This document shows, one piece after another, positions 46,991-64,000 of a DNA stretch of 64,000 bases; the stretch's first letter is position 1, and every line of letters begins with the position of its first letter. Location of the stretch: assembly GCA_964617815.1 (NCBI GenBank), contig CAZTXY010000001.1, forward strand, positions 128 to 64,127. The letters are read 5' to 3'. The translations under genes and the position numbers were made by a program. The notes beneath the pieces are model-generated. The model saw only the letters and a program-made list of their open reading frames with translations. It did no database searches and was not told where the DNA came from. Source of the stretch: an uncultured Candidatus Saccharibacteria bacterium. Its GTDB lineage: Bacteria > Patescibacteriota > Doudnabacteria > UBA920.

Positions 46991-47005
46991 TTCGTCTCCT
47001 TGGGC

Positions 47006-49409: not shown

Positions 49410-49566
49410 TTTTGGGTTTTTGTCAATAGTATTCAGTCCACAATTTTTTGTCTAAAATCGCCTGTTTATATAGTGATTCAAGCTATTTAGAAGTTTTAGG
49501 CCTTTTGACAAAGTGGTCCCCCACTTGTACCATAAATGTACGACTAATGCTTTAGAAATACAAATT

Positions 49567-50580
49567 ATGTCTCAAAATATTTTAATTACTGGAGGAGCTG
49601 GATTTATTGGTAGTAATTTTGTACATTATTGGACTAAAAATTACCCAGAAGACAAAATTACAGTATTTGACGCTCTAACTTATGCTGGCAATCTTGAGAA
49701 CCTGGAATCCATAAAAGATAAAATTACTTTTGTTAAAGGAGATATTACAAATGATGCTGATGTTAACGCCGCAGTTGCAGGACAAGACGTTGTTGTGCAT
49801 TTTGCAGCCGAAAGTCATAACGACCGAGCGATTTTAGACCCAGATATTTTTATTAAAACTAATGTAGCTGGCACACACGCACTACTCCGCGCCAGCCGTA
49901 AACACAACATCAAACGTTTTCATCATATCTCGACAGATGAAGTTTTTGGCCACATTGAATTGTCATCAAATGATAAATGGACGGAGGACTCCCCTTACGC
50001 ACCACGTAGCCCTTATTCAGCCAGCAAAGCCGGCAGTGACCATATTGTTCGAGCATACTTTCACACTTTTGGTTTACCAATAACCATTACAAACTGCACC
50101 AACAATTTTGGCCCGTACATGTTTCCAGAAAAACTAATGCCACTTGCCATTACTAACGCTTTGGAAGATAAAAAAATTCCTGTGTATGGTCAAGGCGATC
50201 AGATTCGCGACTGGCTTTATGTTAACGATCATTGTCGCGCTATAGATCTAGTACTGAGCAAGGGCATGGTTGGCGAAACTTATTTAGTTGGTAGTCAGCA
50301 CCGCGAGTATACAAATTTAGAGATTATCAAAATTATTTTAAAACTGCTGGGTAAAGATGAAAGCCTCATTGAATTTGTGGCAGACCGCCCAGGCCATGAT
50401 GCTAAATACGCTATAGACGCTAGTAAAATTAGTCGTGAACTTGGTTGGCAACCAGAACATAATGTTGAGGACTGGCTAGAGGTTATGGTCAATTGGTATA
50501 AAGACAACGAAGCTTGGTGGAAAAAAGTTAAAAGCGGTGAATATCAAAAATATTACGAACAAAACTATTTAAATCGTTAA
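49567..50580 (+). CDS. rfbB: dTDP-glucose 4,6-dehydratase
   Basis: ILITGGAGFIGSN Rossmann motif, YSASKAGSD catalytic YxxxK; start placed at MSQNIL. Confidence 0.9.
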   Translation: MSQNILITGGAGFIGSNFVHYWTKNYPEDKITVFDALTYAGNLENLESIKDKITFVKGDITNDADVNAAVAGQDVVVHFAAESHNDRAILDPDIFIKTNVAGTHALLRASRKHNIKRFHHISTDEVFGHIELSSNDKWTEDSPYAPRSPYSASKAGSDHIVRAYFHTFGLPITITNCTNNFGPYMFPEKLMPLAITNALEDKKIPVYGQGDQIRDWLYVNDHCRAIDLVLSKGMVGETYLVGSQHREYTNLEIIKIILKLLGKDESLIEFVADRPGHDAKYAIDASKISRELGWQPEHNVEDWLEVMVNWYKDNEAWWKKVKSGEYQKYYEQNYLNR

Positions 50581-50581
50581 C

Positions 50582-51208
50582 ATGAACATTCCATCAATTA
50601 ATTTTATAAGTCTCGACAATTACAAGGATCAAAAACTTATCGACGGCGTCGTAATACATCCCCTCATCCGTGCACGCCGTGGTGAGGTTGATCCCCGTGG
50701 TTATTTGGTAGAAATGTTTCGCAGTGACTGGTCCGATATGCAATACGACAATATCCAACCAGCAATGACCTATAGTTCTTTTACATATAAAGGTATAGCT
50801 CGAGATGAAGACCAATGGCATGTCCATCCTCATGAAAACACAGAGGGGGGTATTGAACAGTACGATCGATGGGCTTTTATTGGCAAGGCTATTGCAGTCA
50901 TAGCCGATCCAAAAACACATGAACTAAATTTATTTAAAATTGGTACTGGGTGGGGAAATCAAGGATTCTATACATTACTCATCCCACCTCATAAGTATCA
51001 TGGTTTCCTCTCTGCTGGTGGAGTAACTGATGACGAAAACAAGGAAGGAGTATGGATACTTAACTGGCCAAACCATTTATACGATTACGGCAATCCTGGA
51101 CTCATTGAAGGTCGAGTCCCTTATGCGGGGTCGCAGATTCTTTTGCCAGATAACGCAGAATTTAATTGGAACTCTGTTCGTTCAGAATTAGGACTTTCCA
51201 TATCATGA
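50582..51208 (+). CDS. rfbC: cupin-fold dTDP-4-dehydrorhamnose 3,5-epimerase-like protein
   Basis: DPRGYLVEMFR resembles the RmlC N-terminal motif; position between rfbB and rfbD. Confidence 0.55.
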   Translation: MNIPSINFISLDNYKDQKLIDGVVIHPLIRARRGEVDPRGYLVEMFRSDWSDMQYDNIQPAMTYSSFTYKGIARDEDQWHVHPHENTEGGIEQYDRWAFIGKAIAVIADPKTHELNLFKIGTGWGNQGFYTLLIPPHKYHGFLSAGGVTDDENKEGVWILNWPNHLYDYGNPGLIEGRVPYAGSQILLPDNAEFNWNSVRSELGLSIS

Positions 51209-52041
51209 AAAAAATCTTAATTCTTGGAAAAAATGGCAACTTAGGCAGTGAGCTGATGAACCTCTACTCCGGTGAAGGTGTTACTGGCTGGGACAGAAAT
51301 GATATCGATGTAACGAGTCAAGAAATGGTTACAAAAAAAATTACAGCTCTACATCCAGATATTGTTTTTAATTGCACAGCCTATAACAATGTAGATGGCG
51401 CAGAAGAAGATTTTACCGCTGCTAAACAAGTCAACGGTGACGCACCAGGTTTTCTGGCCACAGCCTGCAAAAATATAAATGCTGTACTTATACACTTTAG
51501 CTCTGGGCAAATTTTCGCCGGGGATAATCCTCACGGCAACAACGAAGACGATACACCACTGCCGGTTAATGCTTACGGACAGTCAAAGCTTATTGGGGAA
51601 AAATTCGTGCAAGAGAAAACCGAAGCCTACTATATTATCCGCACCGAATGGCTTTACGGCAAAGGCTCTGGCAAAAAAAGTTTTATTGACATCATGCTAG
51701 AGAAAGCAACTGAGGGCAAACCCATGCAAGGCGTAGATGATGAAATTGGCAAACCCACTTGGGCTCAGGACTTAGCAGAGTTTAGCCGAATGATTGTTGA
51801 ACAAAAACATCCTTATGGGATATACCATGGGATTAATGAAGGGCAAGCTTCCAGACATGACTGGGCCCAAGAAATATTTAAAATCAAGGAATTAAATCCG
51901 CAACTCTCGGCCGTCTCTAGCTCAACTTTTCCTCCTCGCAAAGCCAAACGTCCAAAATATGAACTGCTAAATAATACAAAGCTCATTAAAATGCGTCCAT
52001 GGCAAGAAGCATTGGCCGAATATCTAACTACTAATAACTAA
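51205..52041 (+). CDS. rfbD: dTDP-4-dehydrorhamnose reductase
   Basis: MKKILILGKNGNLGSEL Rossmann N-terminus; start placed at the internal Met, overlapping rfbC by 4 nt. Confidence 0.8.
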   Translation: MKKILILGKNGNLGSELMNLYSGEGVTGWDRNDIDVTSQEMVTKKITALHPDIVFNCTAYNNVDGAEEDFTAAKQVNGDAPGFLATACKNINAVLIHFSSGQIFAGDNPHGNNEDDTPLPVNAYGQSKLIGEKFVQEKTEAYYIIRTEWLYGKGSGKKSFIDIMLEKATEGKPMQGVDDEIGKPTWAQDLAEFSRMIVEQKHPYGIYHGINEGQASRHDWAQEIFKIKELNPQLSAVSSSTFPPRKAKRPKYELLNNTKLIKMRPWQEALAEYLTTNN

Positions 52042-52058
52042 TTACTTATACAAATTTT

Positions 52059-52784
52059 ATGAAAGGTATTATCCTCTCCGGCGGCGCAGGTACGCGACTC
52101 ATGCCACTAACAAAAGTCACCAGCAAACAACTCTTACCTATCTATAATAAACCAATGGTGTTTTATCCTTTGGAAAAATTATTGCAGGCCGGGATTAAGG
52201 AAATTCTAATTATTGTAGCTCCTGACCACTGCGGAGACTATATGAAAGTTTTGGGAAGCGGCAAAGAATTTGGCGAAGGAGTTCGCTTTACTTATGAAAT
52301 TCAAGACAAGCCATTGGGTTTAGCCCATGCCTATATTATGGCCGAAAATTTTCTTGATGATGGCGAGAGCTCAGCTATGATTTTGGGTGATAACATGTTT
52401 GACGCGGATTTTTCCGAAGCCATCCAAAATTTTAAAAGTGGGGGCAAAGTCTTTGCTAAAGAAGTTCCGGATCCAGAACGGTTTGGAGTAGTGAAATTCG
52501 ACCAACAACAAAAAGCTGTGGAGATTATTGAAAAGCCAAAAACTTTTCTCTCAAACCACGCGCTCACTGGCATGTATATTTTTGACAACCGAGTTGTAGA
52601 AATTGCGAAAAACGTAAAACCTTCAGACCGTGGTGAAATTGAGATTACAGAAATAATGAACTGGTACTTACAAAAAGAAGAGCTTGATGTAGAAATTATA
52701 AATGGCCAATGGATAGACGCTGGCACATTTGAAAGCTACTACAAAGCTAATCAGTGGGCTTACGAAAAATCTCAAAAAGAATAA
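52059..52784 (+). CDS. rfbA: glucose-1-phosphate thymidylyltransferase (short form)
   Basis: MKGIILSGGAGTRLMPLT nucleotidyltransferase motif. Confidence 0.85.
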   Translation: MKGIILSGGAGTRLMPLTKVTSKQLLPIYNKPMVFYPLEKLLQAGIKEILIIVAPDHCGDYMKVLGSGKEFGEGVRFTYEIQDKPLGLAHAYIMAENFLDDGESSAMILGDNMFDADFSEAIQNFKSGGKVFAKEVPDPERFGVVKFDQQQKAVEIIEKPKTFLSNHALTGMYIFDNRVVEIAKNVKPSDRGEIEITEIMNWYLQKEELDVEIINGQWIDAGTFESYYKANQWAYEKSQKE

Positions 52785-53057
52785 CTTGCCTTAAGTTTAA
52801 CTACTTAATACTGTGTTCGTTGCAACACAGAAGGATAAGCTGCATCAGATTCTACTCCGTGAAGACGTGGCCCAAACACAGCCAATAGCGATAAGAAAAG
52901 TGCGACTAATGCTATTATCCATAATAACAATTGTTTTTGTTTCATAATTTTTTTGATTATCTAATCTATCATAAGCATACTAACAACAAAGAAAAAGGCA
53001 AGCGAGTTATCCACAAAAGGCTGTTTTCGCAACTTGAATCAAAATTTAGACAAAAAA

Positions 53058-53088
53058 AATCCCCCAGCTAAAAGCTCGGGGGATTTTT
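53058..53088. terminator. bidirectional rho-independent terminator
   Basis: AAAAAAAATCCCCCAGC-TAAAA-GCTCGGGGGATTTTTTT, abutting the rplU stop. Confidence 0.65.
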
Positions 53089-53394
53089 TTAGATTTTTGT
53101 AATTTCTATTTCAGTGTAATGTTGTCTGTGACCAGCACTTCTGCGATACTTACTTTTAGCTTTATACTTCAAGATGTGAATCTTCCTATCACGACCCTGC
53201 TTAGTAACTTTAGCCTCAACAACAACACCGGAAACATAAGGCTTACCAACATTGTAAGTCTTGTCATCACCAGTAAATAAAACTTTATCAAACTTTAAGT
53301 CACTACCAACTTCTGCTTCCAATTTTTCAATTTGAAGACTGTCTCCTTTAGCAACAAGGTATTGCTTGCCACCTGTTTCAATAATTGCGTACAT
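53089..53394 (-). CDS. rplU: 50S ribosomal protein L21
   Basis: MYAIIETGGKQY... L21 signature. Confidence 0.9.
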   Translation of the reverse strand: MYAIIETGGKQYLVAKGDSLQIEKLEAEVGSDLKFDKVLFTGDDKTYNVGKPYVSGVVVEAKVTKQGRDRKIHILKYKAKSKYRRSAGHRQHYTEIEITKI

Positions 53395-53467
53395 GATTTT
53401 AATCAGAAATTAAGAATTTATAGGAAAGTTTTTAACCTTCGTAGTATACCAAAACTACCCAAAAAAA

Positions 53468-54520
53468 TCAAGTGTTCACCTTTGAGCTAGATTTTCGACT
53501 CACCGCGGTGATTAGCAAAATCATTATAATAATTAAGGCTAATAGCGCGATGGCTTTTCCAAAAGTTTGAGAAAAAATAGCAATTAAGCCAAAAAGGACT
53601 GAAACGCCGTACAAAATAAGAACAGTCTGCCTTTGAGAAAACCCTCGATCAAGAAATCTAAAGTGTAAATGCAGACGATCTCCTCGAAAAACACTTCGAC
53701 GTTGCCACAAGCGCTGAAGCAAAACCCAAGCCACATCGAGGATAGGAATACCCATAACTAAAAGTGCTGTGGCAATTTTCCCGCCTAAAATTATGGACAA
53801 AACGCCTAGCAAAAATCCAACTAACAGACTTCCGCCATCTCCCAAAAAAATTGAGGCTGGATGAAAAGCATAGACCAAATAGCCTGCTAAACTGGCAGCT
53901 AAAATAATTGAAATTGCAGCGGTCATGGGTTGGTTAATGTGTGGCAAAAGTGACAGCGCAAATAAAGTTAAGCTGGCAATAGTTCCAATACCACTTACTA
54001 AACCATCGATGCCGTCAAGAAATTTTGTTGTAAACATCATTCCCATCATCCACAACCACACAAAAACTGCAGATGCAGGAATTCCAATAATTAAAAACTT
54101 CAAGCTAATTGCATCCCCAAATGGATTACCAATCTCAGTAATACCTACGCCAACCCCGGCACTAACCATAATCAAAGCGCTAATAGCTGGAAACAACCAC
54201 AAAACTTTTGGTGGTAAATTATAACGATCATCTAAATATCCCTCTACCATTAAAAGAGCCCCGCCTGCTAGCATGGCCAGAAAAAACTTAAACGGTATCA
54301 CCGCATAATTTATATCCCCATAAATTAAATAAAGAGCAACGCTAATTCCAAATGACAAAAATACCGCAAGTCCTCCGAGCTTAGCTGTGGGTCGTGAATG
54401 TAAATTGCGTGGAGGCCTCGGGATATCGACGCACCCCAACCTAAAAGCTAATTTTCGAACCAATGGAGTTAAAATAAGCGACAAAGCAAAAGCTAAACCA
54501 CTTAAAATTAGGTAGTGCAT
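53468..54520 (-). CDS. polyprenyl-phosphate N-acetylhexosamine-1-phosphate transferase (WecA/MraY family)
   Basis: About 10 TM helices, DDxxN-like motif (LDDRYNL), 350 aa. Confidence 0.7.
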   Translation of the reverse strand: MHYLILSGLAFALSLILTPLVRKLAFRLGCVDIPRPPRNLHSRPTAKLGGLAVFLSFGISVALYLIYGDINYAVIPFKFFLAMLAGGALLMVEGYLDDRYNLPPKVLWLFPAISALIMVSAGVGVGITEIGNPFGDAISLKFLIIGIPASAVFVWLWMMGMMFTTKFLDGIDGLVSGIGTIASLTLFALSLLPHINQPMTAAISIILAASLAGYLVYAFHPASIFLGDGGSLLVGFLLGVLSIILGGKIATALLVMGIPILDVAWVLLQRLWQRRSVFRGDRLHLHFRFLDRGFSQRQTVLILYGVSVLFGLIAIFSQTFGKAIALLALIIIMILLITAVSRKSSSKVNT

Positions 54521-54523
54521 AAA

Positions 54524-56197
54524 TTATAAATTATTTGGCTTAGTCGTAACGTCTTGCATTTCTTGCATGTGCAAACCAGTGTTCTCACCCTTACGGGCTT
54601 TGGGAGTAACCCAAAATTCTAAATATCTTCCAAACATTAAACGCGTTTGAGCTTCAATAGCAGGCAGGCTCCCAAAAATAACTGAAGTTGCCGGAACCAA
54701 AAACCACTGTAAGTACATCATAATACTGCTCATTTTACCATATTTTTTAGGGCGTGGGGGTAATAAAATCAAATTAATATAAACACTAAAAACTAAAAAG
54801 AAAGTGGCTATTGTCATTAAAGCTTTCGTCGTTTTTGGTAAATTATATGCTACGACCGACTCAGTAAATTGGGTTCCCCCAATGAATAATGGCAACCACC
54901 CGAGCAAAGAAATTAATATACTTGCGGTAGCCCAATTAAAATTTCCTTCAATGTATTGATATAACTTATACATCCTATCCCAAAAGGGTGCCGGACTTCG
55001 AAGTAACGCAGGAACCAAATGTGGATAATATTCAACATTATAAGCCCAGCGTTTCTTTTGTGAATACTGATTCTTCATGGTTTTCCAAATAGTTGTGTCT
55101 AAACAAGTATCTAATGATACCGGGATAAACAACGGGACAACTTCATAATCGCCTTTGTAATGCAAATAGCACTGCCAAAAAATAAAGCCATCTTCATTTA
55201 CGATATCCTTTTTCCAAAATCCTACATCGACTAATGCTTGCAAGGTCATGCTATGTGCAGCAAAAGTGCGCAGCCTATCTGGCCGCGAACTTTCAGTAAA
55301 TTGCCAAAAAGAATTAGACACAGACACGACACGAATGAATGCAGGGCTGTCCCAAATATTATTATTGTAGATGGCAATTGGCTGATAACTTTTTTGATAC
55401 GGCTTTTCCGCGGTTAAAAACTCATACAAGACTCGAGCAAAATACTGCGGATGAACTATAGTGTCACTATCTAAATTTGACACAATAACTTGAGGGATTT
55501 GTATGCCTAACTCTTTTATCTTTGGTAAAAGACTTTGCATGGCAAAACTAGCATTTGAGCTCTTGCCTTTTATCTCACCTTCCAACCCATCTGGATGAAC
55601 TGTCACAAAAAATGCATAGAAGTCTTTGGCGTATTTTTCTCTAACTTGTTCTGCAGTCTCGCTAGCAGGTTTTCCAGCCCGTTCTTCGCTAGCCATTACT
55701 ACTATCATCCGTTCTTTTGGATACCGCGAGGTTTTAATAGCAGATAAGGTGCTATCTAAAACTTCAAAGCTTTCATTAACAAACGGAATGATGACAACTT
55801 GATAAAAATCTAAGTGGGAAGTTCCTAGTAATGTCTTGCCTTTGCCAGAGTTAAGTCTCAAGATTTCTTCTTGATAATATTTTTTTTCTAACTTTTTCTT
55901 TGTGCTAGGAATTTGAGCTTCCAAGAATTTAATAAATTCATCTGGGTGATTAAGCCTTTGCACAAAATCCATCCAATCAATGGTAACAAGCACGCGAAAC
56001 TTTCGGTAACTCCAAATTAAATGCATTGACACATTTAAAGCCTTAAGGACCCAATATAAATCAAAACAAATAATAAAAAGCGCAGCCCACACCGGTTTAT
56101 AGTAGGAAGCAGCAATGGCACCAAAAAAAACAAGCCAAAACTGTAAGCCTGGCAATATTTCCCAAAAACGATCTGCTGGAGTGCGTTTACGAAACAT
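54524..56197 (-). CDS. membrane-embedded processive GT2 glycosyltransferase (cellulose/chitin-synthase-like)
   Basis: D, DxD (NLDSDT) and QxxRW (QKKRWAYN) motifs in order, flanked by TM helices. Confidence 0.6.
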   Translation of the reverse strand: MFRKRTPADRFWEILPGLQFWLVFFGAIAASYYKPVWAALFIICFDLYWVLKALNVSMHLIWSYRKFRVLVTIDWMDFVQRLNHPDEFIKFLEAQIPSTKKKLEKKYYQEEILRLNSGKGKTLLGTSHLDFYQVVIIPFVNESFEVLDSTLSAIKTSRYPKERMIVVMASEERAGKPASETAEQVREKYAKDFYAFFVTVHPDGLEGEIKGKSSNASFAMQSLLPKIKELGIQIPQVIVSNLDSDTIVHPQYFARVLYEFLTAEKPYQKSYQPIAIYNNNIWDSPAFIRVVSVSNSFWQFTESSRPDRLRTFAAHSMTLQALVDVGFWKKDIVNEDGFIFWQCYLHYKGDYEVVPLFIPVSLDTCLDTTIWKTMKNQYSQKKRWAYNVEYYPHLVPALLRSPAPFWDRMYKLYQYIEGNFNWATASILISLLGWLPLFIGGTQFTESVVAYNLPKTTKALMTIATFFLVFSVYINLILLPPRPKKYGKMSSIMMYLQWFLVPATSVIFGSLPAIEAQTRLMFGRYLEFWVTPKARKGENTGLHMQEMQDVTTKPNNL

Positions 56198-56199
56198 AT

Positions 56200-56565
56200 T
56201 TAGTTAACTTGAAACAAAAATATTACTGAAAGAAAAATAATTAGCGAAACTAACAAACTAATCCAAGCTGCCATATACGATAAAAAGTTTCGATCTATCT
56301 TTAAGGCTCGAGTGATTCCAAAATTCAAAGTAGCAATAAAAAAACTAATTAGTGGGAGTTTATATAACTCGCGGTAGGAGCCAAAAGTGTCTACTCCAAA
56401 GACAACGTTATAGTGAAGAGCTAAGTTATTTTGAGCAGGGCTAATTTTGAAGTAGATTAACAATAATGTTATAATAGAAACAATAATCGAAGCGACCCAC
56501 AGAAACAAAATCTTGTTTGTAGCCCAAGCGGAAAATAGCTTAATTCGAATAGACATAACATTCAT
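56200..56565 (-). CDS. small membrane protein (hypothetical)
   Basis: 121 aa, 3 TM helices; immediately upstream of the processive GT2. Confidence 0.3.
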   Translation of the reverse strand: MNVMSIRIKLFSAWATNKILFLWVASIIVSIITLLLIYFKISPAQNNLALHYNVVFGVDTFGSYRELYKLPLISFFIATLNFGITRALKIDRNFLSYMAAWISLLVSLIIFLSVIFLFQVN

Positions 56566-56646
56566 ATTGCCTCCTTATTATAACAAATTACCATTAAACA
56601 CGATAGGTGCTCCAAATTAGAATCTTTAACCAAAACCAAATAGCCA

Positions 56647-58332
56647 ATGAATAAAAAAACAGCTTTTTTACTTGCCGGAATAATTATTTTAGCCATATTC
56701 TTTAGATTCTATCAAATTGCTGTTCTACCTGGCGGGCTTTTTCCGGATGAAGCGGCCAACGGCTTAGATATCAACTCAATGCAACAGGGTGATCTCCAGC
56801 CTTTTTATGAACGTGGCAACGGAAGAGAAGCCTTATTTTTTTACATGCTCTGGGGTAGCGTAGAAAGTTTTGGCAAAGGACCATGGCAACATCATGTTGT
56901 ATCAAGCTTTGTAGGACTACTTTCTGTTATTCTTTGTTTCTTTGTAACTAGAAAATTACTTGGTCTCGCTACTGGTTTTACTGAAAAACATGCAACAATG
57001 GCCGCTTTATTAGCGTCTTTTTTTATGGCCACGTCAACTTGGCATACAACTCTCTCACGTACAGCTTTTCGAGCCAATCTTATTCCTCTTTTTACTACCG
57101 CTACTATCTATTTACTACTTCTTGCGTATAAATCAAGTACAAAAGTTAAACAATATATCTTTTCAATTCTAGCTGGGGCGTGCTTTGCCCTTGGCTTTTA
57201 TAGTTATATCGCCTACCGAATTATGGCGCCACTTCTAATTTTGATTATTTTATGGCCACTGCTTGCCGAAATTTTCAAAACTAAATCCTTTTTAATTATA
57301 AAAAAATGGTTTTTAGCTTTCGTGCTATTTTGTATTGCTTTTGCAATAGCCATTGCTCCACTAGCCCATTATTTTTACACTCATCCTGGCTCTTTTGTCG
57401 GACGTAGTGGTCAAGTTAGCGTCTTTAATCCAGAATTAAACAATGGAAATCTCATCGGTACAATTGGTGAAGTCACCAAGCAAAGCCTGTTAGGATTTGT
57501 AACTGTGGGTGACTTAAACTGGCGTCATAATATTTCAGGAATGCCTTTTTTAAGCCCACTTTACTCCGTATTTTTTGTGCTTGGTTTAGTTAGCATGACT
57601 CTTTTAGCAGCACGCTATACCTTTGCTCCACGTAAACGCTCTGGGGACTGGCCGTATTTTGTACTTGCTGGATGGTTTTGGTCCATGCTTATTCCTGTTA
57701 TTACAACTGCCGAAGGTATCCCGCATGGCCTACGAAGCATTGGCGCAATCCCTGTCGTATTTATAATGTCAAGCTGGGGCTTAGTCCAAATCTATAAATT
57801 TGCAGCCAAATTAATTGAATTTCGCCACACAATGCAAAAAGACTGGCAATTAAACTTAGTAAAAAATGCGGCTAAAGTTATGGTTGTAGTTTTTATAATT
57901 GCGGTGACTTTGCATGGATACACTAGCTATTTTGTTTATGCAGCAAACAGCCCTGAAAATTACTACGCTTTTCGCTCAGACCTCACTGTTGTCAGTAACT
58001 ATATCAATAATAAGTTTGATAACAGTAACGCAAACGGCAAAAAAGACAACACCTTTTTAGTACTTGATAAATTTTCAGTCCAAACTGTTGACTACCTTAC
58101 AAGCTTAGATGGTAAGCATCCACAAAACCCCATTAATCAACCTTACACTCAAGTTGATCCTGAAGATTCTTGGAAACTTTCAGGACTTAAAGGCGGCGAC
58201 CAAATTATTTTCTGCCAATCTAGCATATTCGATATTCCTAAATTTAAAAATTTTCATCCTAACGCAAAATTAGAACGAGAAGCTCGTAATAAATTTGGCC
58301 AAACAGTAATGGCTATATATAGAATCTACTAA
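56647..58332 (+). CDS. GT-C glycosyltransferase (ArnT/PMT-like, GT39/GT83 family)
   Basis: N-terminal TM plus FPDEAANGLD-type DE loop motif; 561 aa polytopic. Confidence 0.6.
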   Translation: MNKKTAFLLAGIIILAIFFRFYQIAVLPGGLFPDEAANGLDINSMQQGDLQPFYERGNGREALFFYMLWGSVESFGKGPWQHHVVSSFVGLLSVILCFFVTRKLLGLATGFTEKHATMAALLASFFMATSTWHTTLSRTAFRANLIPLFTTATIYLLLLAYKSSTKVKQYIFSILAGACFALGFYSYIAYRIMAPLLILIILWPLLAEIFKTKSFLIIKKWFLAFVLFCIAFAIAIAPLAHYFYTHPGSFVGRSGQVSVFNPELNNGNLIGTIGEVTKQSLLGFVTVGDLNWRHNISGMPFLSPLYSVFFVLGLVSMTLLAARYTFAPRKRSGDWPYFVLAGWFWSMLIPVITTAEGIPHGLRSIGAIPVVFIMSSWGLVQIYKFAAKLIEFRHTMQKDWQLNLVKNAAKVMVVVFIIAVTLHGYTSYFVYAANSPENYYAFRSDLTVVSNYINNKFDNSNANGKKDNTFLVLDKFSVQTVDYLTSLDGKHPQNPINQPYTQVDPEDSWKLSGLKGGDQIIFCQSSIFDIPKFKNFHPNAKLEREARNKFGQTVMAIYRIY

Positions 58333-58349
58333 GCACTCAAACATAAACA

Positions 58350-59933
58350 ATGAATAAAATAAAACACTACCTACCACTAATCGCTATTTTAATAATCGGC
58401 ACGATCTTACGTTTTTATCACAATACAGATATTTCTCTTTGGCACGACGAAGCTTTTTCCGCTTTGCTAATAAAATATTCTTGGGGTGAAATGTTTTATC
58501 GAATTGGCTTAGACGTTCATCCACCAGCATACTACATCCTCTTGCGTCTCTGGCATTATATTTTTAGTGACTCGCTTTTGGCGCTACGAAGCTTTTCCAT
58601 ATTTTTTGGCCTTGGTACGGTTTTGGCTGGATATGCTTTTGTTAAAACTGCTTTTAAAAATGAACGCACAGCGCTAATAGCAGCAATGCTTTTGGCCATC
58701 AACCCATTCGGGCTACATTATGTGACAGAAGCGCGCATGTACACCATGGGAGCCTGTTTTGCCCTCTTAGCAGCTTTTGCCATAACCAAGGCCCTGCATG
58801 CACAAAAAGACTATTTTCAAAGTCTGAAAAACAATATTCCCCACTCCCCAGAAAGCAGAAAACTTAAAAAAACAGCTGTCCTTTACTACAGCCTGTTTAC
58901 TCTTTTTTGCTCTTTAATAATGTACACCCATTACTATTTATTTTTTACAGTTGCGGCACTATGTCTTTACGGACTTGCGTACCATCTCTATCACTACAAA
59001 GATAACATTAAACGATATGCACTACTTGTTTCAAGTTACGTGTTGCTTGCTGTTCTGTTCTTGCCATGGTTAAAAACATTTCTCTTCCAATTCAAACAAG
59101 TCAGTGGCAATTATTGGATTCCACCTATGGATCGATGGAGCATTCCTTCAGCTATTTGGGAAATGTTTTTAGGTATTGGAATTGATATAGCAAAGTCCAG
59201 CACTCAAGCTATATTAGTAGCCGCAACAGCATTTACTATATTTTTTCTTTACCGCTTTATTAAAAAAACAACTAGCTGGGAAAAATGGTTAGTGCTTCTA
59301 AATGTTCTTGCTCCTTTTGCAGGCGCATTATTATTCCTAATTTTAGCAAAACTTCGAGGACAAGACTCGTCTGTATTCTTAGTTCGCTATTTTCTTTTTG
59401 CTTCCAGCTTCTATACTATTGCTCTTACAATTTGGCTAACTACCATTAAAAATATTAAGCTTCAAACAATTTTAATTTCGATTCTTCTTTTTGCAAATTT
59501 AGGAGCCTTTTTCCACTACTGGAACGAGCTTGATATCAAAACCAAACCAGGGATGGCTGCCGCTAGTAAATTTTTACAAGCTAACGTTGAGCCAACTCAT
59601 AAAATATATATTGGGAGCAGTTTTGAATTTTTTAACTTCAAATATTATAATCAAACTTCAGTAAGGCCACTTCTTTACAGTGGAGGCAACCGTGAAGTAC
59701 AAAATTTGCCACACTACGCTGGCACAGCAATTTTAACTAACCAAGACCTTTTGCCAAATTTTAGCGAGGGTGTAAAATCTGGCGATACAGTTTGGCTACT
59801 TTGGACAAATGGTTTTGGTGGAAGTAAACCTGACGTCCCTCTTAACTGGAAACAGATTGATGAAAAAGGCTACGCAGAAGTTCGGCCATACGTTGGCACA
59901 TGGGTTATTGTTACTGAGTATAAAGTCAATTAA
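58350..59933 (+). CDS. GT-C glycosyltransferase (ArnT/PMT-like), paralogue of the upstream gene
   Basis: LWHDEAFSAL DE-loop motif; 527 aa polytopic. Confidence 0.6.
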   Translation: MNKIKHYLPLIAILIIGTILRFYHNTDISLWHDEAFSALLIKYSWGEMFYRIGLDVHPPAYYILLRLWHYIFSDSLLALRSFSIFFGLGTVLAGYAFVKTAFKNERTALIAAMLLAINPFGLHYVTEARMYTMGACFALLAAFAITKALHAQKDYFQSLKNNIPHSPESRKLKKTAVLYYSLFTLFCSLIMYTHYYLFFTVAALCLYGLAYHLYHYKDNIKRYALLVSSYVLLAVLFLPWLKTFLFQFKQVSGNYWIPPMDRWSIPSAIWEMFLGIGIDIAKSSTQAILVAATAFTIFFLYRFIKKTTSWEKWLVLLNVLAPFAGALLFLILAKLRGQDSSVFLVRYFLFASSFYTIALTIWLTTIKNIKLQTILISILLFANLGAFFHYWNELDIKTKPGMAAASKFLQANVEPTHKIYIGSSFEFFNFKYYNQTSVRPLLYSGGNREVQNLPHYAGTAILTNQDLLPNFSEGVKSGDTVWLLWTNGFGGSKPDVPLNWKQIDEKGYAEVRPYVGTWVIVTEYKVN

Positions 59934-59953
59934 ACAAAGTTAAAAAAACTTTC

Positions 59954-59977
59954 CCCGCACGACACGCGTCGTGCGGG
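59954..59977. terminator. bidirectional terminator
   Basis: Perfect 10-bp GC stem CCCGCACGAC-ACGC-GTCGTGCGGG with A-run before. Confidence 0.55.
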
Positions 59978-59992
59978 AGTCTTTGAATCACT

Positions 59993-60421
59993 CTAGGTGA
60001 AAACAATCTCTTCGCGCCACTCGGACAAGCCGGCTTCAAAAATACTTGCCCGCTTCTCGATCTGCCAAAGAGGCACGCCATGAATATTGCGGCTTGCGGC
60101 CTCAAGTGGGTTACAAACCAAGCGAATGACTCGGCAGTGAGCCTGGCGAGATTTTGCTGCCTCCCAGTAACGCTCAGCCTCCCAGAGCATGACGTTGGTG
60201 TTGTCAACCACGATCAGCGGGGCACCTGCGTAAAGGATCTCCAAGAACTTGTCCCAGCAAGTCCCATGTGCATCGGGCAAGAGGCTCGAGCAGAACCTGA
60301 ACTCTCTGTTTTCATCATAGAAGTATTCGTCAGCAGAGCAAACGATTGCTTCCGGAAAATTCTGGGCCACATAGTGTGACTTCCCAGAACCTGAGATCCC
60401 GCGCATAATAACGATGGTCTG
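59993..60421 (-). CDS. P-loop kinase of the AAA_33 type (predicted nucleotide/polynucleotide kinase)
   Basis: Walker A GISGSGKS, LIVVDNTN Walker-B-like motif; about 52% GC; start moved to MQTIV, which has AGGAGG 7 nt upstream. Confidence 0.55.
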   Translation of the reverse strand, partial: QTIVIMRGISGSGKSHYVAQNFPEAIVCSADEYFYDENREFRFCSSLLPDAHGTCWDKFLEILYAGAPLIVVDNTNVMLWEAERYWEAAKSRQAHCRVIRLVCNPLEAASRNIHGVPLWQIEKRASIFEAGLSEWREEIVFT

Positions 60422-60457
60422 CATGACTATTCTCCTCCTCTTTGACATCCGACATCA

Positions 60458-60486
60458 TAGAATAGCAAAAACACAGCCTTGCGTCA
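60458..60486 (-). promoter_or_regulatory. putative promoter (TTGACG-17-TATTCT) for the AAA_33 kinase gene
   Basis: Hexamers read on the minus strand about 30 nt upstream of the start. Confidence 0.4.
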
Positions 60487-60578
60487 ATGTAGTGGACTGT
60501 GTTCATAACCTCATAATTTCAAGATTATCAAAAGTAAAACTCTGTGTCACGATAAGAAAATCTAAATGCAAAAACAAA

Positions 60579-60607
60579 AGAACTACTAACCCTCAATTAG
60601 TAGTTCT
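60579..60607 (-). terminator. terminator after the cmk-like gene
   Basis: Perfect 11-bp stem AGAACTACTAA/TTAGTAGTTCT, 7-nt loop, T-run on the minus strand. Confidence 0.55.
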
Positions 60608-60631
60608 TTAAGATTGCACAGCAGCCTAGGA

Positions 60632-61267
60632 TCAAACATGAGAGCCCATAGCAGCCACCACTTCAGCCACGGTCAACTTAGTAGTGTCTATGGTGATCGC
60701 GCCGTAAGGTTTTCGTGCCGGCGCAAATTCTCTATTTCTATCAACTGAGTCTCTCACTCGAAGTTGATAGCAGACTTCTGCAAAGGAGAGTTTCGGCTGA
60801 CTAGTGCGTAGTTCATTCCACCTCCTACTTGCTCGAGTGAAAAAATTACAGGCAAGGAAAAACTTGGCGTCTGCTTTGGGAAAAATGTCCAGCCCACAAC
60901 TTCTTCCATCACATATTAAATTTGCGTTTGTAAAACGCAAAGCAAAATCCTGGGCCCATTCTGCAACAGAAGTAAAAACAGCTGGATTACTGACGTAGTC
61001 AGCAGTTAATGCTGCCGCCTTTTCGCCCCTAAGATAGGCGGTTAAATCATTGCCGGACCAAAAAATCTTCTCAAAACCAACAGGTATCTCTAGGTGCTCT
61101 TTGTAAACAAAGCTGTCCAAAGACACGCAAAGTCGATTTTGCAAAGCGTAAACTGCAAACCGAAACAACAAGCCAAAATCCACGTAGCAAAAATCAAACT
61201 TTGCTGCAAAGAGCCTAGACACCGAACCTTTTCCCGAACCGGCCATACCACTTACTGCAACAATCAT
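60632..61267 (-). CDS. cmk: cytidylate kinase family protein (divergent NMP-binding site)
   Basis: AVSGMAGSGKGSVSRLFA P-loop, ICDGRSCGLDIFPKADAKFFL and C-terminal RDSVDRNREFAP align with the Cmk layout, but DFGLLFR replaces DSGAxYR; AGGAGG RBS. Confidence 0.65.
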   Translation of the reverse strand: MIVAVSGMAGSGKGSVSRLFAAKFDFCYVDFGLLFRFAVYALQNRLCVSLDSFVYKEHLEIPVGFEKIFWSGNDLTAYLRGEKAAALTADYVSNPAVFTSVAEWAQDFALRFTNANLICDGRSCGLDIFPKADAKFFLACNFFTRASRRWNELRTSQPKLSFAEVCYQLRVRDSVDRNREFAPARKPYGAITIDTTKLTVAEVVAAMGSHV

Positions 61268-61281
61268 GAAAACCTCCTGTG

Positions 61282-61626
61282 CTAGGTTTTGCTAGGACTT
61301 CGTTTCTTAGCAAAAGTCCCAGGGATTAAACGAAATGCCAAGCGGCCTTCCCAATGAAGCATAGGTATGCCAATTATAGTGCCGCACTTTTTGCACTCAA
61401 GCACACTAAAACTATGGGTCTCCTTTATTTCAGGATTATTTTGGAGACCAGCTAAATCTGGAGGGTCCAAAATTCGATTAAGGTAACAGCGCTTCAGTTC
61501 CCCATGTCCATCTTTTTGGTAAACCAAAATTTCAGACTGGCAAATTGCGCAAGAAAGGTAGAGCACCATAGCGCTTCCACCCCGACTTCTCCGAAACTTA
61601 TCGACCTTGAGTTTGTAAGCCATCAT
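61282..61626 (-). CDS. zinc-ribbon protein (hypothetical)
   Basis: CAIC ... CKKCG four-Cys ribbon; 114 aa; AGGAGG RBS lies inside the upstream gene's 3' end and start/stop overlap suggests translational coupling. Confidence 0.4.
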   Translation of the reverse strand: MMAYKLKVDKFRRSRGGSAMVLYLSCAICQSEILVYQKDGHGELKRCYLNRILDPPDLAGLQNNPEIKETHSFSVLECKKCGTIIGIPMLHWEGRLAFRLIPGTFAKKRSPSKT

Positions 61627-62501
61627 TATCCCTCCTTAAATTTTGTCGAAAAATTTTTTGACCAAAATTCTTTCTTTGCTCTTACATTCCTAATCAGTTG
61701 ATGATCTTTTGATTTGTAACCGTTTACAGACGACTTATTTGCTATTTCAAAACCCAATTTTGCAAATGCTTCTATTTTATATGGATTATCTGTATGAATA
61801 TTTAAACTATGTTTTGAGCTTAAACCTAGCGCTTTAATAATAATTGCAGCTTCTGTATAAGTCCGTTGATCAATAGATTTAGCATCGCCATAAAATAACT
61901 CCGCGGTTTCAATAGTGTCAAATCCTAACTCCTTCATAATTCGCTGGTTAGCCATTTTATATTCACCCCAGCCTCTACCATCTTGCCCAGGTATTTCCAC
62001 AATAATCCCAGATTTTAATTTAATTATCTCTTCTTGAGTTCTCCGAAGCTGATTTAAACAATCGCATGTTATATCCCCAAGTACCATTCCTGAAAAACAT
62101 CCCGAGTCAATTCTGATATTGACAATAGTATTATTAAAAACTTTTTGTAAGCTTGGATGAAGCAAAATATAATGTTGCCCCCATTGTCCGCCCACTACCT
62201 CAGCTGGAATAGATAAAAATTCACCCCGGTCCGTAATAATCGGGCCGGGGACTCCAAAGCAAACATATTTAGTCACACCTTGATGTTGAACCATGACAAA
62301 CTGATACTGCATTGACTCATGACGAAGTCGTAATATGTAATCAGAAACAGTTTCTGAAGATAGCCGAGCAGGTGATGGGATATAAACTTTATTTATAGCC
62401 GACCCTAAAATAGCTCTTTGCAGATGTTCATGCAAGTAGAGATTTTTTTTGGCTCTTAATTTGGAAAGCTGAGTATTCATACAAATTGAATTTATACTCA
62501 T
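61626..62501 (-). CDS. GTP cyclohydrolase II (RibA)-like protein with an N-terminal extension of about 90 aa
   Basis: Zinc-binding RIDSGCFSGMVLGDITCDCL and EIPGQDGRGWG...TIETAEL...TDNPYKIE align with RibA catalytic motifs. Confidence 0.6.
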   Translation of the reverse strand: MSINSICMNTQLSKLRAKKNLYLHEHLQRAILGSAINKVYIPSPARLSSETVSDYILRLRHESMQYQFVMVQHQGVTKYVCFGVPGPIITDRGEFLSIPAEVVGGQWGQHYILLHPSLQKVFNNTIVNIRIDSGCFSGMVLGDITCDCLNQLRRTQEEIIKLKSGIIVEIPGQDGRGWGEYKMANQRIMKELGFDTIETAELFYGDAKSIDQRTYTEAAIIIKALGLSSKHSLNIHTDNPYKIEAFAKLGFEIANKSSVNGYKSKDHQLIRNVRAKKEFWSKNFSTKFKEG

Positions 62502-62564
62502 ATCCTAAATAGTATTAGTATCTGTTGTCAAATATTAACAACAAAATTTGGAGAAATACATTTG

Positions 62565-62594
62565 TTGACAATAAATAATAACAAGCGCTATAAT
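62565..62594 (+). promoter_or_regulatory. consensus sigma70 promoter (TTGACA-18-TATAAT) about 120 nt upstream of the TrmB gene
   Basis: Hexamers seen directly; implies a long 5' UTR. Confidence 0.5.
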
Positions 62595-62719
62595 TAAGCT
62601 AACTAGCGTTAATACTGATTGTTTCTAAAGCAGGCCTTAATGTCAACAATTTTTATTAACAATGGTCAAATTTTAGGGCCTTTAATCTCTAAAATCATTA
62701 TTAATTAAGTTTTCCACAT

Positions 62720-63481
62720 ATGATAGACAAAATAACAAAATTTGGCCTTTCGCGCAAAGAAGCAAAAGTGTATTTATCTCTTCTTGAAATAGGTGCTTCT
62801 GTTGTCAGCGATATTGCCAAGAATACAAAAATGAATCGTAGTACTACTTATGTACTACTAGAATCTTTAACAAATCATGGTCTTGTCAGCATCTCTGAAG
62901 AAAATGGAGTTAAAGTTTATGCACCGTCCCCTCCTGAACGACTAGTTCACTACCTTGAAGATCGCGCTAAAGAATATACGCAACTTATTAGCACAGCTAA
63001 TTCAATTTTACCAGAACTAAAAGCTCTTTATGTTGGTGTTGGACCAAAACCTAAAGTGCAATTTTTTGAAGGCGTAGAAGGAATTAAAACAGCTTATGAA
63101 TATACACTAGCTTCCACTGAGACAATTCGAGCCTATGCTTCAATAGAAAATATGCATCAAGCTTTAGGCCATTATTTTCCAGATTACTATCAAAGACGAA
63201 CTGCAAAAGGTATCTCAATTAGAGCCATTTTTCCTGATACACCTGAATCAAGAGAACGCATAAAACATAATAAAGAAGAAGCCCGTGAGGCGTACTTGGT
63301 ACCAAAAGAAAAATTTGCTTTTTCTCAAGAAATAAATATTTTTGATAACAAAATAGTTTTTATGTCTCTTATAGAAAAATTTGCTTTGGTAGTAGAAAGT
63401 GAAGCACTGGCTGACGGACTAAAAAAAACTTTTGAACTAGCTTGGGAAGAAGCCAAGCGGCTACATAAAGAAATAATATAG
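62720..63481 (+). CDS. TrmB-family transcriptional regulator
   Basis: N-terminal wHTH FGLSRKEAKVYLSLLEIGASVVSDIAKNTKMNRSTTYVLLESL plus the C-terminal TrmB-type domain. Confidence 0.65.
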   Translation: MIDKITKFGLSRKEAKVYLSLLEIGASVVSDIAKNTKMNRSTTYVLLESLTNHGLVSISEENGVKVYAPSPPERLVHYLEDRAKEYTQLISTANSILPELKALYVGVGPKPKVQFFEGVEGIKTAYEYTLASTETIRAYASIENMHQALGHYFPDYYQRRTAKGISIRAIFPDTPESRERIKHNKEEAREAYLVPKEKFAFSQEINIFDNKIVFMSLIEKFALVVESEALADGLKKTFELAWEEAKRLHKEII

Positions 63482-63606: not shown

Positions 63607-64000
63607 TTATGATATAACTGTTCCTAAAAAATTCTGTCCTTCTAGTAATTTTTTCAAATTAGCTAATTTTTTTCCATTCACAATTATGACTTTTTGTTTA
63701 TGATGTGCCGCTGTACTAGAAGCAATGGGATCAAAAGGAACGTGCTTGCCTGGTGACCATTTCCCACCAATCATTTTTTTATAATCTTTCCAAGACATTT
63801 CTTTAATCGCCTTAGCATTTTTAAACTTACGTGGGTCTTTATTGTAAACGTAATCAATATTACTTAAATTGATAACTGTGCCGGCTCCATAAAGAAAAGC
63901 CATACGCACCGCAACATCGTCACTACTTCTTCCTGGCTTCCAACCTCCGGCAAGTAAAACTTTGCTAGAAAAATTTACTTTTTTACTGGGGTCTTCAACA
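63607..64000 (-). CDS. pyrH: UMP kinase (amino-acid-kinase family), 3' part; N-terminus lies beyond the window edge
   Basis: Frame is open to position 64000; LLAGGWKPGRSSDDVA...GTDGVY-like and C-terminal GTVIS match the PyrH layout. Confidence 0.55.
   Translation of the reverse strand, partial: VEDPSKKVNFSSKVLLAGGWKPGRSSDDVAVRMAFLYGAGTVINLSNIDYVYNKDPRKFKNAKAIKEMSWKDYKKMIGGKWSPGKHVPFDPIASSTAAHHKQKVIIVNGKKLANLKKLLEGQNFLGTVIS

Follow-up and report, generated by a model that had tools for sequence, protein, structure and literature searches.

Sequence comparison indicates that a RibA-like enzyme, a small zinc-ribbon protein (Znrib), an NMP kinase and a TrmB-family regulator form a conserved four-part unit, one copy of which lies in the 64-kb stretch of DNA analysed here (the window). 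The gene order RibA-like, Znrib, Cmk-like kinase is kept, at 40-56% identity, in some 20 independent loci from the ultra-small CPR bacteria; the three genes also occur in one archaeal-type contig and in one terminase-bearing phage, where they sit in the replication region next to a nucleotidyltransferase. The unit probably processes uridine-type nucleotides by a route of which we found no description. To the full proposal, a dedicated CPR module for such nucleotides that serves neither riboflavin synthesis nor as the housekeeping cmk, we give somewhat less than an even chance. CPR bacteria have no de novo nucleotide synthesis and must rework scavenged nucleotides, in a manner that is poorly known. 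Study of the module may bring to light an undescribed pyrimidine-nucleotide conversion or nucleotide, and its three or four small soluble proteins make a short, clonable and directly testable system.

The four minus-strand open reading frames named in the first-pass annotation are all present at the coordinates given for them, and the HMM searches it proposed place the RibA-like, Cmk-like and AAA_33 proteins in the expected Pfam families. The RibA-like frame (61626..62501, 291 aa) begins in public gene calls at Met8 (62480, 284 aa), a start favoured by the position of the promoter-like site of the module at 62502..62531 on the minus strand (TTGACA-18-TAGGAT, 10/12 matches in a consensus scan). 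Its stop overlaps the start of Znrib (61282..61626, minus, 114 aa; the NCBI start is the second ATG, 61623, giving 113 aa) in a shared TAATG at 61628..61624, and the ribosome-binding site said to be embedded in the RibA-like gene can be read there as AGGAGG (61636..61631). Another AGGAGG (61278..61273) stands 5 nt ahead of the Cmk-like gene (60632..61267, minus, 211 aa), and a terminator-like hairpin with a 15-pair stem and a T-run (60577..60609, minus) closes the three-gene operon. Beyond it lies the AAA_33 P-loop kinase-like gene (59993..60448, minus; likely start the second ATG, 60424, 143 aa), which has its own promoter-like site between the two kinase genes (60487..60459), as first proposed, a GAGGAGG ahead of it (60440..60434) and a further terminator-like hairpin past its end (59953..59978, minus; 11 pairs, 8 of them G-C). 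The elevated GC ascribed to the cluster was found in Znrib (0.438), the Cmk-like gene (0.448) and the AAA_33 gene (0.52); the RibA-like gene, at 0.353, is below the window mean of 0.392.

The cluster as first drawn has to be redrawn. The AAA_33 protein (Pfam AAA_33 1.2e-9, 39 bits; phrog_2071 'ATPase', 9e-18) is encoded beside the module in three loci only (L005, L008 and L022), all from the species of the window, and a terminator intervenes. It is a GC-rich, phage-related, species-specific addition outside the conserved module, so that just three of the flagged genes belong to the unit. The fourth member, lying beyond the cluster as first delimited, is instead a TrmB-family transcription regulator on the plus strand (62720..63481), divergent from the module, with a Pfam TrmB HTH match of 57 bits (cut-off 25.6) and no known C-terminal domain. 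Of 12 loci compared, 8 have it divergent on the upstream side of the RibA-like gene, and a further one (L016) has it on the opposite strand downstream; phmmer E values run from 1e-37 to 1e-122. A palindrome, TGTTGTTAA-TAT-TTGACAACA (62523..62543), overlaps the -35 box of the module and is a candidate TrmB operator. Further half-sites lie at 62563..62571 and 62640..62648, and the motif TGTTGTyAA..TTGACAACA recurs in the TrmB/RibA-like intergenic region of five loci (L001, L011, L013, L017 and L018). TrmB would bind the palindrome. The neighbouring pyrH of the first-pass annotation is a C-terminal fragment of an AA_kinase-family, pyrH-like gene, which runs off the window end (63607..64000, minus; context only), and it adjoins the module only in the window's own species.

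Strains that are otherwise about 97% identical share only 50-80% identity over a mosaic tract (60410..61470) that takes in the spacer, the Cmk-like gene from end to end and the second half of the Znrib gene, and their Cmk-like alleles are 54% identical in amino acids. Such strain-level variation would fit an anti-phage defence or counter-defence module depleting or modifying nucleotides, a reading raised at first pass, as would the phage-borne copy, the phage-related AAA_33 gene alongside and the metagenome contigs of the species, only 2.4-4 kb long here. We nevertheless consider it very improbable. PADLOC 2.0 returned no match for the RibA-like, Znrib and Cmk-like proteins and only generic HTH and P-loop matches for TrmB and AAA_33; the three-gene order, with a divergent TrmB in most of the loci analysed, recurs over CPR lineages amid varied, often housekeeping genes; and regulation through a TrmB repressor of its own, like the PyrF fusions described below, suggests metabolism.

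The RibA-like protein belongs to the GTP_cyclohydro2 family (PF00925, 6.5e-17, residues 109-255, 62 bits against a cut-off of 23.3), and its AF2 model (pLDDT 90.5) matches RibA 2bz0 (Foldseek E 1e-11, TM 0.86 on target). With the RibA enzymes of E. coli (2BZ0), H. pylori (4RL4) and M. tuberculosis (RibA2, 4I14) it has fold and Pfam domain in common. Its zinc triad, C135/C146/C148, noted as retained from the outset, corresponds to Cys54/Cys65/Cys67 of E. coli RibA, R213 to the nucleophile R128, and R130, R176 and K242 to the triphosphate ligands R49, R94 and K154. All are conserved across the aligned linked RibA-like proteins, except that R130 falls slightly short of invariance in A2 and that the R94 column holds Ala in a single fusion protein. 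Other features depart from RibA: RHSEC becomes RDSGC, and the aligned RibA-like proteins have no equivalent of Tyr105, the position being taken by Gln or varying in type A and being Leu in type B. In RibA this tyrosine is said to be hydrogen-bonded to the zinc-bound water, and S. coelicolor paralogues without an equivalent reportedly keep ring opening and lose deformylation. The extra N-terminal domain, put at about 90 aa in the first-pass annotation, comes to about 80-85 aa by comparison with E. coli RibA and has invariant residues of its own (Y40, E50, R58) that could stand in for Tyr105.

Scores against the RibA NCBIfam models, 60-74 bits, fall far below the cut-offs of 148-206 (TIGR00505, 60.5 bits against 205.85; NF001591, 67.7 against 148). 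No rib genes lie near the RibA-like gene in the window or in annotated flanks, with the exception of L028, which carries, besides its RibA-like gene, a separate canonical-like RibA whose neighbours are riboflavin synthase and riboflavin kinase; the 64-kb window has no RibH homologue. The sub-cut-off scores, the missing Tyr105 and the canonical RibA of L028 uphold the earlier suspicion that the lone gene does not serve riboflavin, and the enzyme appears not to be the first step of that pathway.

URC1/UrcA is described as the UTP cyclohydrolase of the URC uracil-catabolic pathway (7EEV/7EJ3; Zhang et al. ACS Catal 2021, as cited in PMC12507026). It belongs to the same superfamily, also carries an N-terminal addition and acts in a pyrimidine-nucleotide context, as we propose for the module. 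Zinc triad, Arg nucleophile, a Glu after GRxxG and an aromatic pair with a longer loop before the D-x-R motif are common to both, whereas the Tyr at the Tyr105 position is kept by URC1, as it is by the canonical-like RibA of L028. Foldseek aligned the RibA-like model to 7eev over 289 columns, nearly the whole model including the N-terminal extension (E 2.6e-6, TM 0.50, rmsd 6.2). The A2 profile matched 7eev/7ej3 only marginally in hmmsearch (E 0.057, 15.7 bits), against 1e-17 to 1e-18 for RibA, and since the profile is so much closer to RibA than to the UTP cyclohydrolase, GTP is still a live candidate substrate. URC4, UPRT and urea amidolyase partners are absent from the annotated neighbours of the module (some flanks are annotated), and we know of no need of URC1 for a zinc-ribbon partner or a dedicated kinase. 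By these comparisons the GTP-cyclohydrolase-II superfamily has, next to RibA and URC1, the RibA-like family as its third branch.

The Cmk-like protein matches Cytidylate_kin over profile positions 1-205 of 211 (PF02224, 2.9e-37, 128.9 bits) and stays under the TIGR00017 equivalog cut-off (117 bits against 135.55). It has the P-loop of bacterial Cmk (TIGR00017; E. coli 1KDO, Y. pseudotuberculosis), and the phosphate and ribose ligands K18, R41, R131, R157, R181, D185 and R188 are invariant in the aligned Cmk-like kinases. The side chains that hydrogen-bond cytosine in Cmk, S36, R110 and D132 (PMC3603445), are all replaced in the 22 linked homologues (22/22), none of the three being kept; in the window protein they are F, F and S. 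A38 and Y40 have become L and F, and the alignment contains the exchange of DSGAxYR for DFGLLFR noted at first pass, so that the non-canonical base pocket claimed from this one motif extends well past it. The Cmk-like kinase is, judging by these residues, not a housekeeping CMP kinase.

A second architecture replaces the Cmk-like kinase by a Gmk-like one, which it combines with Znrib, RibA-like and PyrF. The PyrF proteins exceed the TIGR02127 equivalog cut-off of 110.6 bits (167.6 in L019, 170.9 in L025 and 179 in L028) and appear to be genuine type 2 orotidine-5'-phosphate decarboxylases; the window's own module has no PyrF. In all 12 Gmk-like kinases (12/12) the Glu of the FLE motif, presumably the guanine-binding Glu of Gmk, is V or A. 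Two unrelated NMP-kinase families thus both seem to have shed canonical base recognition, and they look interchangeable because in L040 a type-B-like RibA-like protein is paired with a Cmk-like kinase. Fusions of Znrib::RibA-like (L023/L025, P0170, P0211, P0231), RibA-like::Znrib (L045), RibA-like::PyrF and Gmk-like::Znrib (both in L028, P0167, P0169, P0172 and P0183) and PyrF::Gmk-like (L019, L021) tie all the parts of the module together. This linkage supports the first-pass idea of a functional nucleotide unit; the GTP-derived product proposed for it fared less well, as the PyrF/Gmk-like architecture and the fusions point to uridine-type nucleotides instead.

These data also bear on whether a divergent riboflavin RibA and the organism's only cmk are here neighbours by chance. 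Their Pfam families would allow it, and neither the 64-kb window nor the fetched flanks yielded a second cmk. Yet both proteins miss their equivalog cut-offs, every linked Cmk-like kinase has lost the cytosine-binding residues, RibH is absent from the window, and a canonical RibA accompanies the RibA-like gene in L028. With the gene order kept around the zinc protein, the parts fused in other genomes, and a Gmk-like kinase and PyrF in alternative architectures, we regard chance adjacency as extremely unlikely. In CPR genomes, an annotation as 'GTP cyclohydrolase II' or 'cytidylate kinase' should not be equated with riboflavin synthesis or CMP salvage.

Znrib itself is a new small zinc protein family without a Pfam or NCBIfam model, counting 578 representatives at E <= 1e-3 and 50% clustering. 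The window protein has no Pfam match over threshold, only a weak one to Yippee-Mis18, and its four Cys form two CxxC knuckles about 50 residues apart. Two such knuckles likewise pin two beta-sheets in the beta-tent proteins (Yippee/Mis18, cereblon CULT, the RIG-I C-terminal domain, MsrB), which are also its top, though weak, Foldseek matches (E 0.055, TM 0.45-0.54); structural modelling suggests that Znrib probably has a beta-tent or Yippee-like fold. It differs from the named beta-tent proteins in its own invariant motifs, YQKDGxGxLxRCYLNRI and GRLAFRL, and in being bacterial and tied to nucleotide enzymes. In about 12 of the 52 Znrib loci no RibA-like gene was detected beside it.

The conservation, the fusions, the residue patterns and the operator motif are observations; from them we infer a uridine-type substrate, the order kinase then cyclohydrolase, complex formation and TrmB repression. 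The RibA-like protein, Znrib and the kinase would act as a complex in which the zinc protein bridges kinase and cyclohydrolase. The kinase, with phosphate and ribose ligands kept and cytosine- or guanine-specific side chains lost, would phosphorylate UMP or a close uracil-type NMP, delivered in the PyrF architecture by the fused or adjacent PyrF. Once a triphosphate has been formed, R213 of the RibA-like enzyme would attack the alpha-phosphate and release pyrophosphate, and the Cys3-Zn-bound water would hydrolyse the base ring, as URC1 does on UTP and RibA on GTP; with no Tyr105 equivalent, the enzyme may not go beyond the first product of ring opening. TrmB would repress the operon through the palindrome over the -35 box. 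We favour uridine-type nucleotides because of the PyrF and Gmk-like architecture and its fusions. Against this, the module lacks an NDP-to-NTP step, the pyrH-like gene two genes away makes it less than obvious why another UMP kinase should be required, and a UTP-consuming enzyme is hard to rationalise in a phage. A conserved downstream enzyme, URC4-like or other, was not found near the module, and the Znrib loci in which no RibA-like gene was detected also count against this reading.

A possible but doubtful alternative has the cyclohydrolase first: the RibA-like enzyme would turn an NTP (GTP by closest homology) into a non-canonical, ring-opened NMP, handed over by the zinc protein to a kinase that makes the modified NDP or NTP. 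Examples of such a product are a possibly labile formamidopyrimidine or DARP-type nucleotide, to which the kinase pocket would have been rebuilt. This pathway is contiguous, with no NDP kinase step missing; RibA is the closest profile to the family, the S. coelicolor paralogues reportedly open the ring without deformylation, the pyrH-like gene already adjoins the module, and the phage copy next to a nucleotidyltransferase fits the making of a special nucleotide. Loss of base recognition converged in two unrelated kinase families, which standard NMPs would not require. This alternative leaves the PyrF::kinase and RibA-like::PyrF fusions unexplained, however, as a carboxylate on which PyrF could act is absent from every known GCHII-type product. 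The Gmk-like kinases have also lost the Glu expected to contact the 2-amino-4-oxo face that a guanine-derived product would retain, and the surrounding genes include no conserved consumer enzyme.

A further scheme, in which the reactions converge on UMP, would account for PyrF, for the two kinases and for a pathway without gaps: the RibA-like enzyme would make UMP or dUMP, PPi and ammonia from CTP or dCTP, PyrF would convert OMP to UMP, and the kinase would go on to UDP. AT-rich genomes living on scavenged nucleotides could in this way balance their pools from C to U; the carriers are AT-rich (window 39% GC, phage 28% GC), and, going by the residue roles in PMC3603445, a switch from cytosine to uracil recognition would call for replacing D132 and R110. 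The idea is purely hypothetical and we think it improbable: deamination is not known for any GCHII superfamily member, and the known members attack the carbon beside the glycosidic nitrogen, not C4.

Stated more broadly, the remodelled kinase may form a channelled metabolon with the RibA-like enzyme and the zinc protein, making a non-canonical, ring-opened or otherwise base-modified nucleotide at the di- or triphosphate level, a reading to which we attach rather low confidence. If the metabolon exists, it would represent a previously unknown nucleotide pathway, shared by CPR bacteria with some DPANN-like archaea and one or more phages, and the zinc protein would be an adaptor of a new kind for handling nucleotides. 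The PyrF fusions and the regulator and operator dedicated to the module have now been defined. The module, should it make or use a modified nucleotide, can be likened, by analogy, to two known systems, viperin with CMPK2 and the phage T4 set of dCTPase gp56, hydroxymethylase gp42 and dNMP kinase gp1. Their modifying enzymes are not homologous to the RibA-like protein, but they too combine an NTP-to-NMP step releasing PPi with a specialised NMP kinase, and are likewise carried by phage as well as cells.

An ORF scan of the window places four consecutive ORFs on the minus strand at 59993..62501. The first (RibA-like, 61626..62501) matches GTP_cyclohydro2 in Pfam with E 6.5e-17, covering residues 109-255 of 291 only; the third (Cmk-like, 60632..61267) matches Cytidylate_kin over its full length (2.9e-37), and the fourth (59993..60448) matches AAA_33 (1.2e-9). 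For the 114-aa zinc protein encoded between RibA-like and Cmk-like (Znrib, 61282..61626) no Pfam family above threshold was found. The RibA-like stop and the Znrib start overlap as TAATG (61628..61624), with AGGAGG ahead, inside the RibA-like gene; AGGAGG also lies 5 nt upstream of the Cmk-like start, and GAGGAGG 9 nt upstream of the second ATG (60424) of the AAA_33 gene. Public gene calls start RibA-like at Met8 (62480) and Znrib at its second Met (61623). Consensus scans place a terminator-like hairpin with a T-run (60609..60577) downstream of Cmk-like, a promoter-like site at 60487..60459 and a second terminator at 59978..59953, all on the minus strand. The first-pass annotation had described these ORFs, families, ribosome-binding sites, terminators and promoter accurately, as judged by the ORF, Pfam and consensus scans. 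Its claim that the cluster has elevated GC holds for Znrib (0.438), Cmk-like (0.448) and AAA_33 (0.52), but not for RibA-like (0.353 vs 0.392 for the window). The flank adjoining the module (47964..59933) is a cell-envelope glycosylation block, with a sortase-domain protein, rhamnose-pathway-type NTP_transferase, GDP_Man_Dehyd/Epimerase and RmlD-type genes, GT4 and GT2 glycosyltransferases and two PMT-type mannosyltransferase-like membrane proteins. A high-GC island (0.55-0.57 vs 0.39) occupies 46000..48000, and PDB sequence relatives were found for neither of its ORFs (45800..46990 and 47006..47773). No tRNA or Rfam family was detected across the 64-kb window.

Homology searching with RibA-like returned 44 proteins, nearly all of 235-325 aa and sharing its domain. 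On their contigs the gene is followed by a small ORF and a Cytidylate_kin gene, and a TrmB-family gene usually lies upstream in divergent orientation. A scan with one genome per species gave eight loci, all from MAGs labelled Saccharibacteria, Staskawiczbacteria, Paceibacter or 'bacterium', and a metagenome scan seeded with Znrib added 52 more. Profile searches of ORFs found RibA-like, Znrib and Cmk-like in order at nine of 12 loci, and no Znrib between RibA-like and Cmk-like at two, both from one organism; TrmB is divergent upstream at 8 of the 12 and downstream in one further locus. The conserved unit is TrmB (62720..63481, plus strand, in the window) together with the three-gene operon. The AAA_33 gene is confined to the window's own species (contigs L005, L008 and L022), stands behind the terminator, has the highest GC (52% vs 39% for the window) and matches the phage family phrog_2071 (9e-18) and, weakly, polynucleotide-kinase models; it is probably a lineage-specific neighbour, horizontally acquired.

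Between TrmB and RibA-like, the palindrome TGTTGTTAA-TAT-TTGACAACA (62543..62523) overlaps the -35 TTGACA of the module's promoter-like site, which a consensus scan places on the minus strand at 62531..62502. The conserved form TGTTGTyAA-N3-TTGACAACA is found in the TrmB/RibA-like spacers of loci L001, L011, L013, L017 and L018, and the L001 copy is a perfect palindrome. This intergenic palindrome is a candidate operator, and the TrmB homologue would repress the module. Further half-sites in the window lie at 62563..62571 and 62640..62648.

Contigs L005-L010 and L022, from the window's own species, match it at ~97% identity on both sides of roughly 61470..60410, a tract comprising the second half of the Znrib gene, all of the Cmk-like gene and the spacer, in which identity falls to 50-80%. 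The Cmk alleles share 54% of their residues and the RibA-like proteins of the strains differ by one residue. Exact-sequence look-ups gave no record of the window's Cmk and Znrib alleles, the window's version of the tract was seen on its own NCBI contig only, and the next nearest Cmk-like protein to the window allele is 42% identical. The tract looks like imported recombination, replacing a co-adapted Znrib/kinase pair. The module also occurs in a 59.7-kb IMG/VR contig of 28% GC that encodes a large terminase (phrog_38, 4e-19). There, a block of RibA-like, Znrib, Cmk-like and nucleotidyltransferase (RlaP/phrog_388) genes lies between two SNF2 helicase gene halves and adjoins a DnaC-like loader and a Toprim-DnaB primase-helicase; it looks as if the block were a cassette inserted into the SNF2 gene. 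In locus L074 of this phage (2370..7814 of UViG_3300033143_004977; L077 and L078 are identical to it in sequence) the flanking ORFs match the N- and C-terminal halves of one SNF2 profile. Scans for further phage carriers gave one phage lineage only, in two samples, and PHROGs holds no family for RibA-like, Znrib or Cmk-like.

The AlphaFold model of RibA-like, built with 30 homologues, is confident (pLDDT 90.5, pTM 0.88). Foldseek against the PDB aligned it with E. coli and H. pylori RibA over 182 columns (E ~1e-11) and with the UTP cyclohydrolase structures 7EEV/7EJ3 over 289 columns, including the N-terminal extension (E ~3e-6). PMC12507026, citing Zhang et al. 2021, identifies UTP cyclohydrolase as URC1, an enzyme of the URC route of uracil catabolism. 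By family profile, RibA (1e-17 to 1e-18) is far nearer than URC1 (0.057). Isolated exceptions apart, the linked RibA-like proteins examined by alignment share with RibA the zinc triad, the triphosphate ligands R49, R94 and K154, and the Arg whose role in RibA is to attack the alpha-phosphate (PMC10366380). The RibA motif RHSEC has become RDSGC, and at the Tyr105 column type A loci (RibA-like, Znrib and Cmk-like) have Gln or a variable residue and type B loci (with a Gmk-like kinase and PyrF) have Leu, whereas both URC1 and a canonical-like RibA on the archaeal-type contig L028 keep the Tyr. Tyr105 is said, by Ren et al. in 2005, to hold the zinc-bound water, and the S. coelicolor paralogues without it, studied by Spoonamore and Bandarian in 2008, reportedly stop at the formylated ring-opened product. 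RibA-like falls below every RibA model cut-off. Because L028 has that separate canonical-like RibA (Pfam 151 bits) beside a RibA-like::PyrF fusion, as well as riboflavin synthase and riboflavin kinase, RibA-like is a paralogue with another job than RibA. The riboflavin reading was rejected on four grounds: RibA-like misses the model cut-offs, it lacks Tyr105, its gene context speaks against the pathway, and a canonical RibA coexists with it.

The altered substrate site that the first-pass annotation had seen in the Cmk homologue was confirmed and much strengthened by aligning 22 homologues linked to RibA-like or Znrib with E. coli Cmk. A word-index search with Cmk-like gave two proteins only, so this set was drawn from gene neighbourhoods. 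K18, R41, R131, R157, R181, D185 and R188 are identical wherever aligned. Ser36 is replaced by F, A, V, L or I and Asp132 by S, N, T or G in 22/22, Arg110 is never Arg (Phe in most), A38 is L in 21/22 and W in the other, and every homologue has F for Y40. The side chains of Arg110, Asp132 and Ser36 in Cmk hydrogen-bond cytosine, Tyr40 stacks on it, and the R110A mutant is inactive (PMC3603445). Gmk models give the Gmk-like kinase of type B higher scores (57-84 vs 29-42 bits), which is why a PhnN-like (PRPP-forming) identity is not preferred for it. This kinase retains the phosphate-site residues S-x-x-T-R, R and Y-x-T, and in 12/12 the glutamate of its FLE motif, presumably equivalent to guanine-binding Glu69 in yeast Guk1, has become V or A. 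Two unrelated NMP-kinase folds have thus lost canonical base recognition alongside the same gene partners. No second cmk or gmk was found within the window or any fetched flank, which together cover a small share of the genomes.

In the second architecture, Nomurabacteria-type and other contigs carry Znrib, RibA-like and a 469-aa PyrF::Guanylate_kin fusion in succession, with a second Znrib gene on the other side. Loci L023 and L025 have Znrib::RibA-like (410 aa) followed by PyrF and Gmk-like; L028 has RibA-like::PyrF (565 aa) with Gmk-like::Znrib (324 aa); L045 has RibA-like::Znrib with Cmk-like; and L040 pairs a Cmk-like kinase with a type-B-like RibA-like protein. The representative library holds four Gmk-like::Znrib and three Znrib::RibA-like fusions. 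The fusions offer the best evidence that the cyclohydrolase, Znrib and the kinase, with PyrF where present, belong to a single pathway and probably to a single complex, and the arrangements suggest that Cmk-like and Gmk-like kinases replace one another. In L028 (388..12561 of Ga0307374_10000001, 586,870 bp) flavin and pyrimidine genes are intermingled: riboflavin synthase, an archaeal-type CTP-dependent riboflavin kinase and the canonical-like RibA adjoin the two fusion genes, as do genes for an MFS transporter and a DHO_dh-family protein and one that matches amidohydrolase weakly.

The PyrF domains score above their curated equivalog cut-off (168-179 vs 110.6 bits), and the Gmk-like and RibA-like parts of the second architecture fall below theirs. 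Since PyrF passes this cut-off and occurs fused with either the kinase or the cyclohydrolase, UMP-type nucleotides would be the most economical shared currency of the module. From this currency comes the model that we prefer, if tentatively and at somewhat less than even confidence, in which a dedicated kinase would phosphorylate UMP-type NMPs and a URC1-like pyrimidine NTP cyclohydrolase would receive its output. The main rival, which we consider less likely, reverses the order: the cyclohydrolase would make an unusual NMP that the remodelled kinase then phosphorylates. This would account better for phage carriage and, given a pyrH-like gene two genes away (63607..64000, at the window end), for the special kinases, but it leaves PyrF unexplained. 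A conversion of CTP to UMP, with everything converging on UMP, is coherent yet without precedent in the superfamily, and we deem it improbable.

The Znrib family exceeds the RibA-like family, with at least 218 matches at ~50% identity; in a 50%-clustered library, 578 representatives reach E <= 1e-3. It has no model in Pfam, NCBIfam, PHROG or PADLOC, and its Yippee-Mis18 match in Pfam is sub-threshold. The motifs CxxC, YQKDGxGxLxRCYLNRI, CxxC and GRLAFRL are invariant, as are many Arg and Lys residues. The predicted structure is confident (pLDDT 91.9) and its best PDB matches (Mis18/Yippee, YPEL5, the cereblon CULT domain, the RIG-I C-terminal domain and MsrB) are all beta-tent folds, matched weakly (E 0.055, prob 0.96, TM 0.45-0.54). 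We infer that Znrib bridges kinase and cyclohydrolase, and it may hold nucleotide phosphates. About a dozen Znrib loci have no detectable RibA-like neighbour, GNAT, HD and CYTH genes adjoining in two, and its role may therefore be broader. In L070 (7516..11213) and L049, stand-alone Znrib genes with no RibA-like gene nearby are surrounded by genes for GNAT acetyltransferases and for HD-domain and CYTH (triphosphate tunnel) proteins, and no consistent partner emerged from these contexts. RNA 5'-end processing, with Znrib as a RIG-I-CTD-like binder of ppp-RNA, was dropped, since PyrF implies that the nucleotides are free.

The module is a conserved, portable and separately regulated nucleotide unit, serving neither riboflavin synthesis nor the ordinary salvage of CMP. 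Nor does it match known defence families: RibA-like, Znrib and Cmk-like are unmatched in PADLOC, and a known defence system was rejected. The literature searched held no description of the module. Its parts belong to known superfamilies, and we give it a modest but genuine chance of encoding new chemistry.
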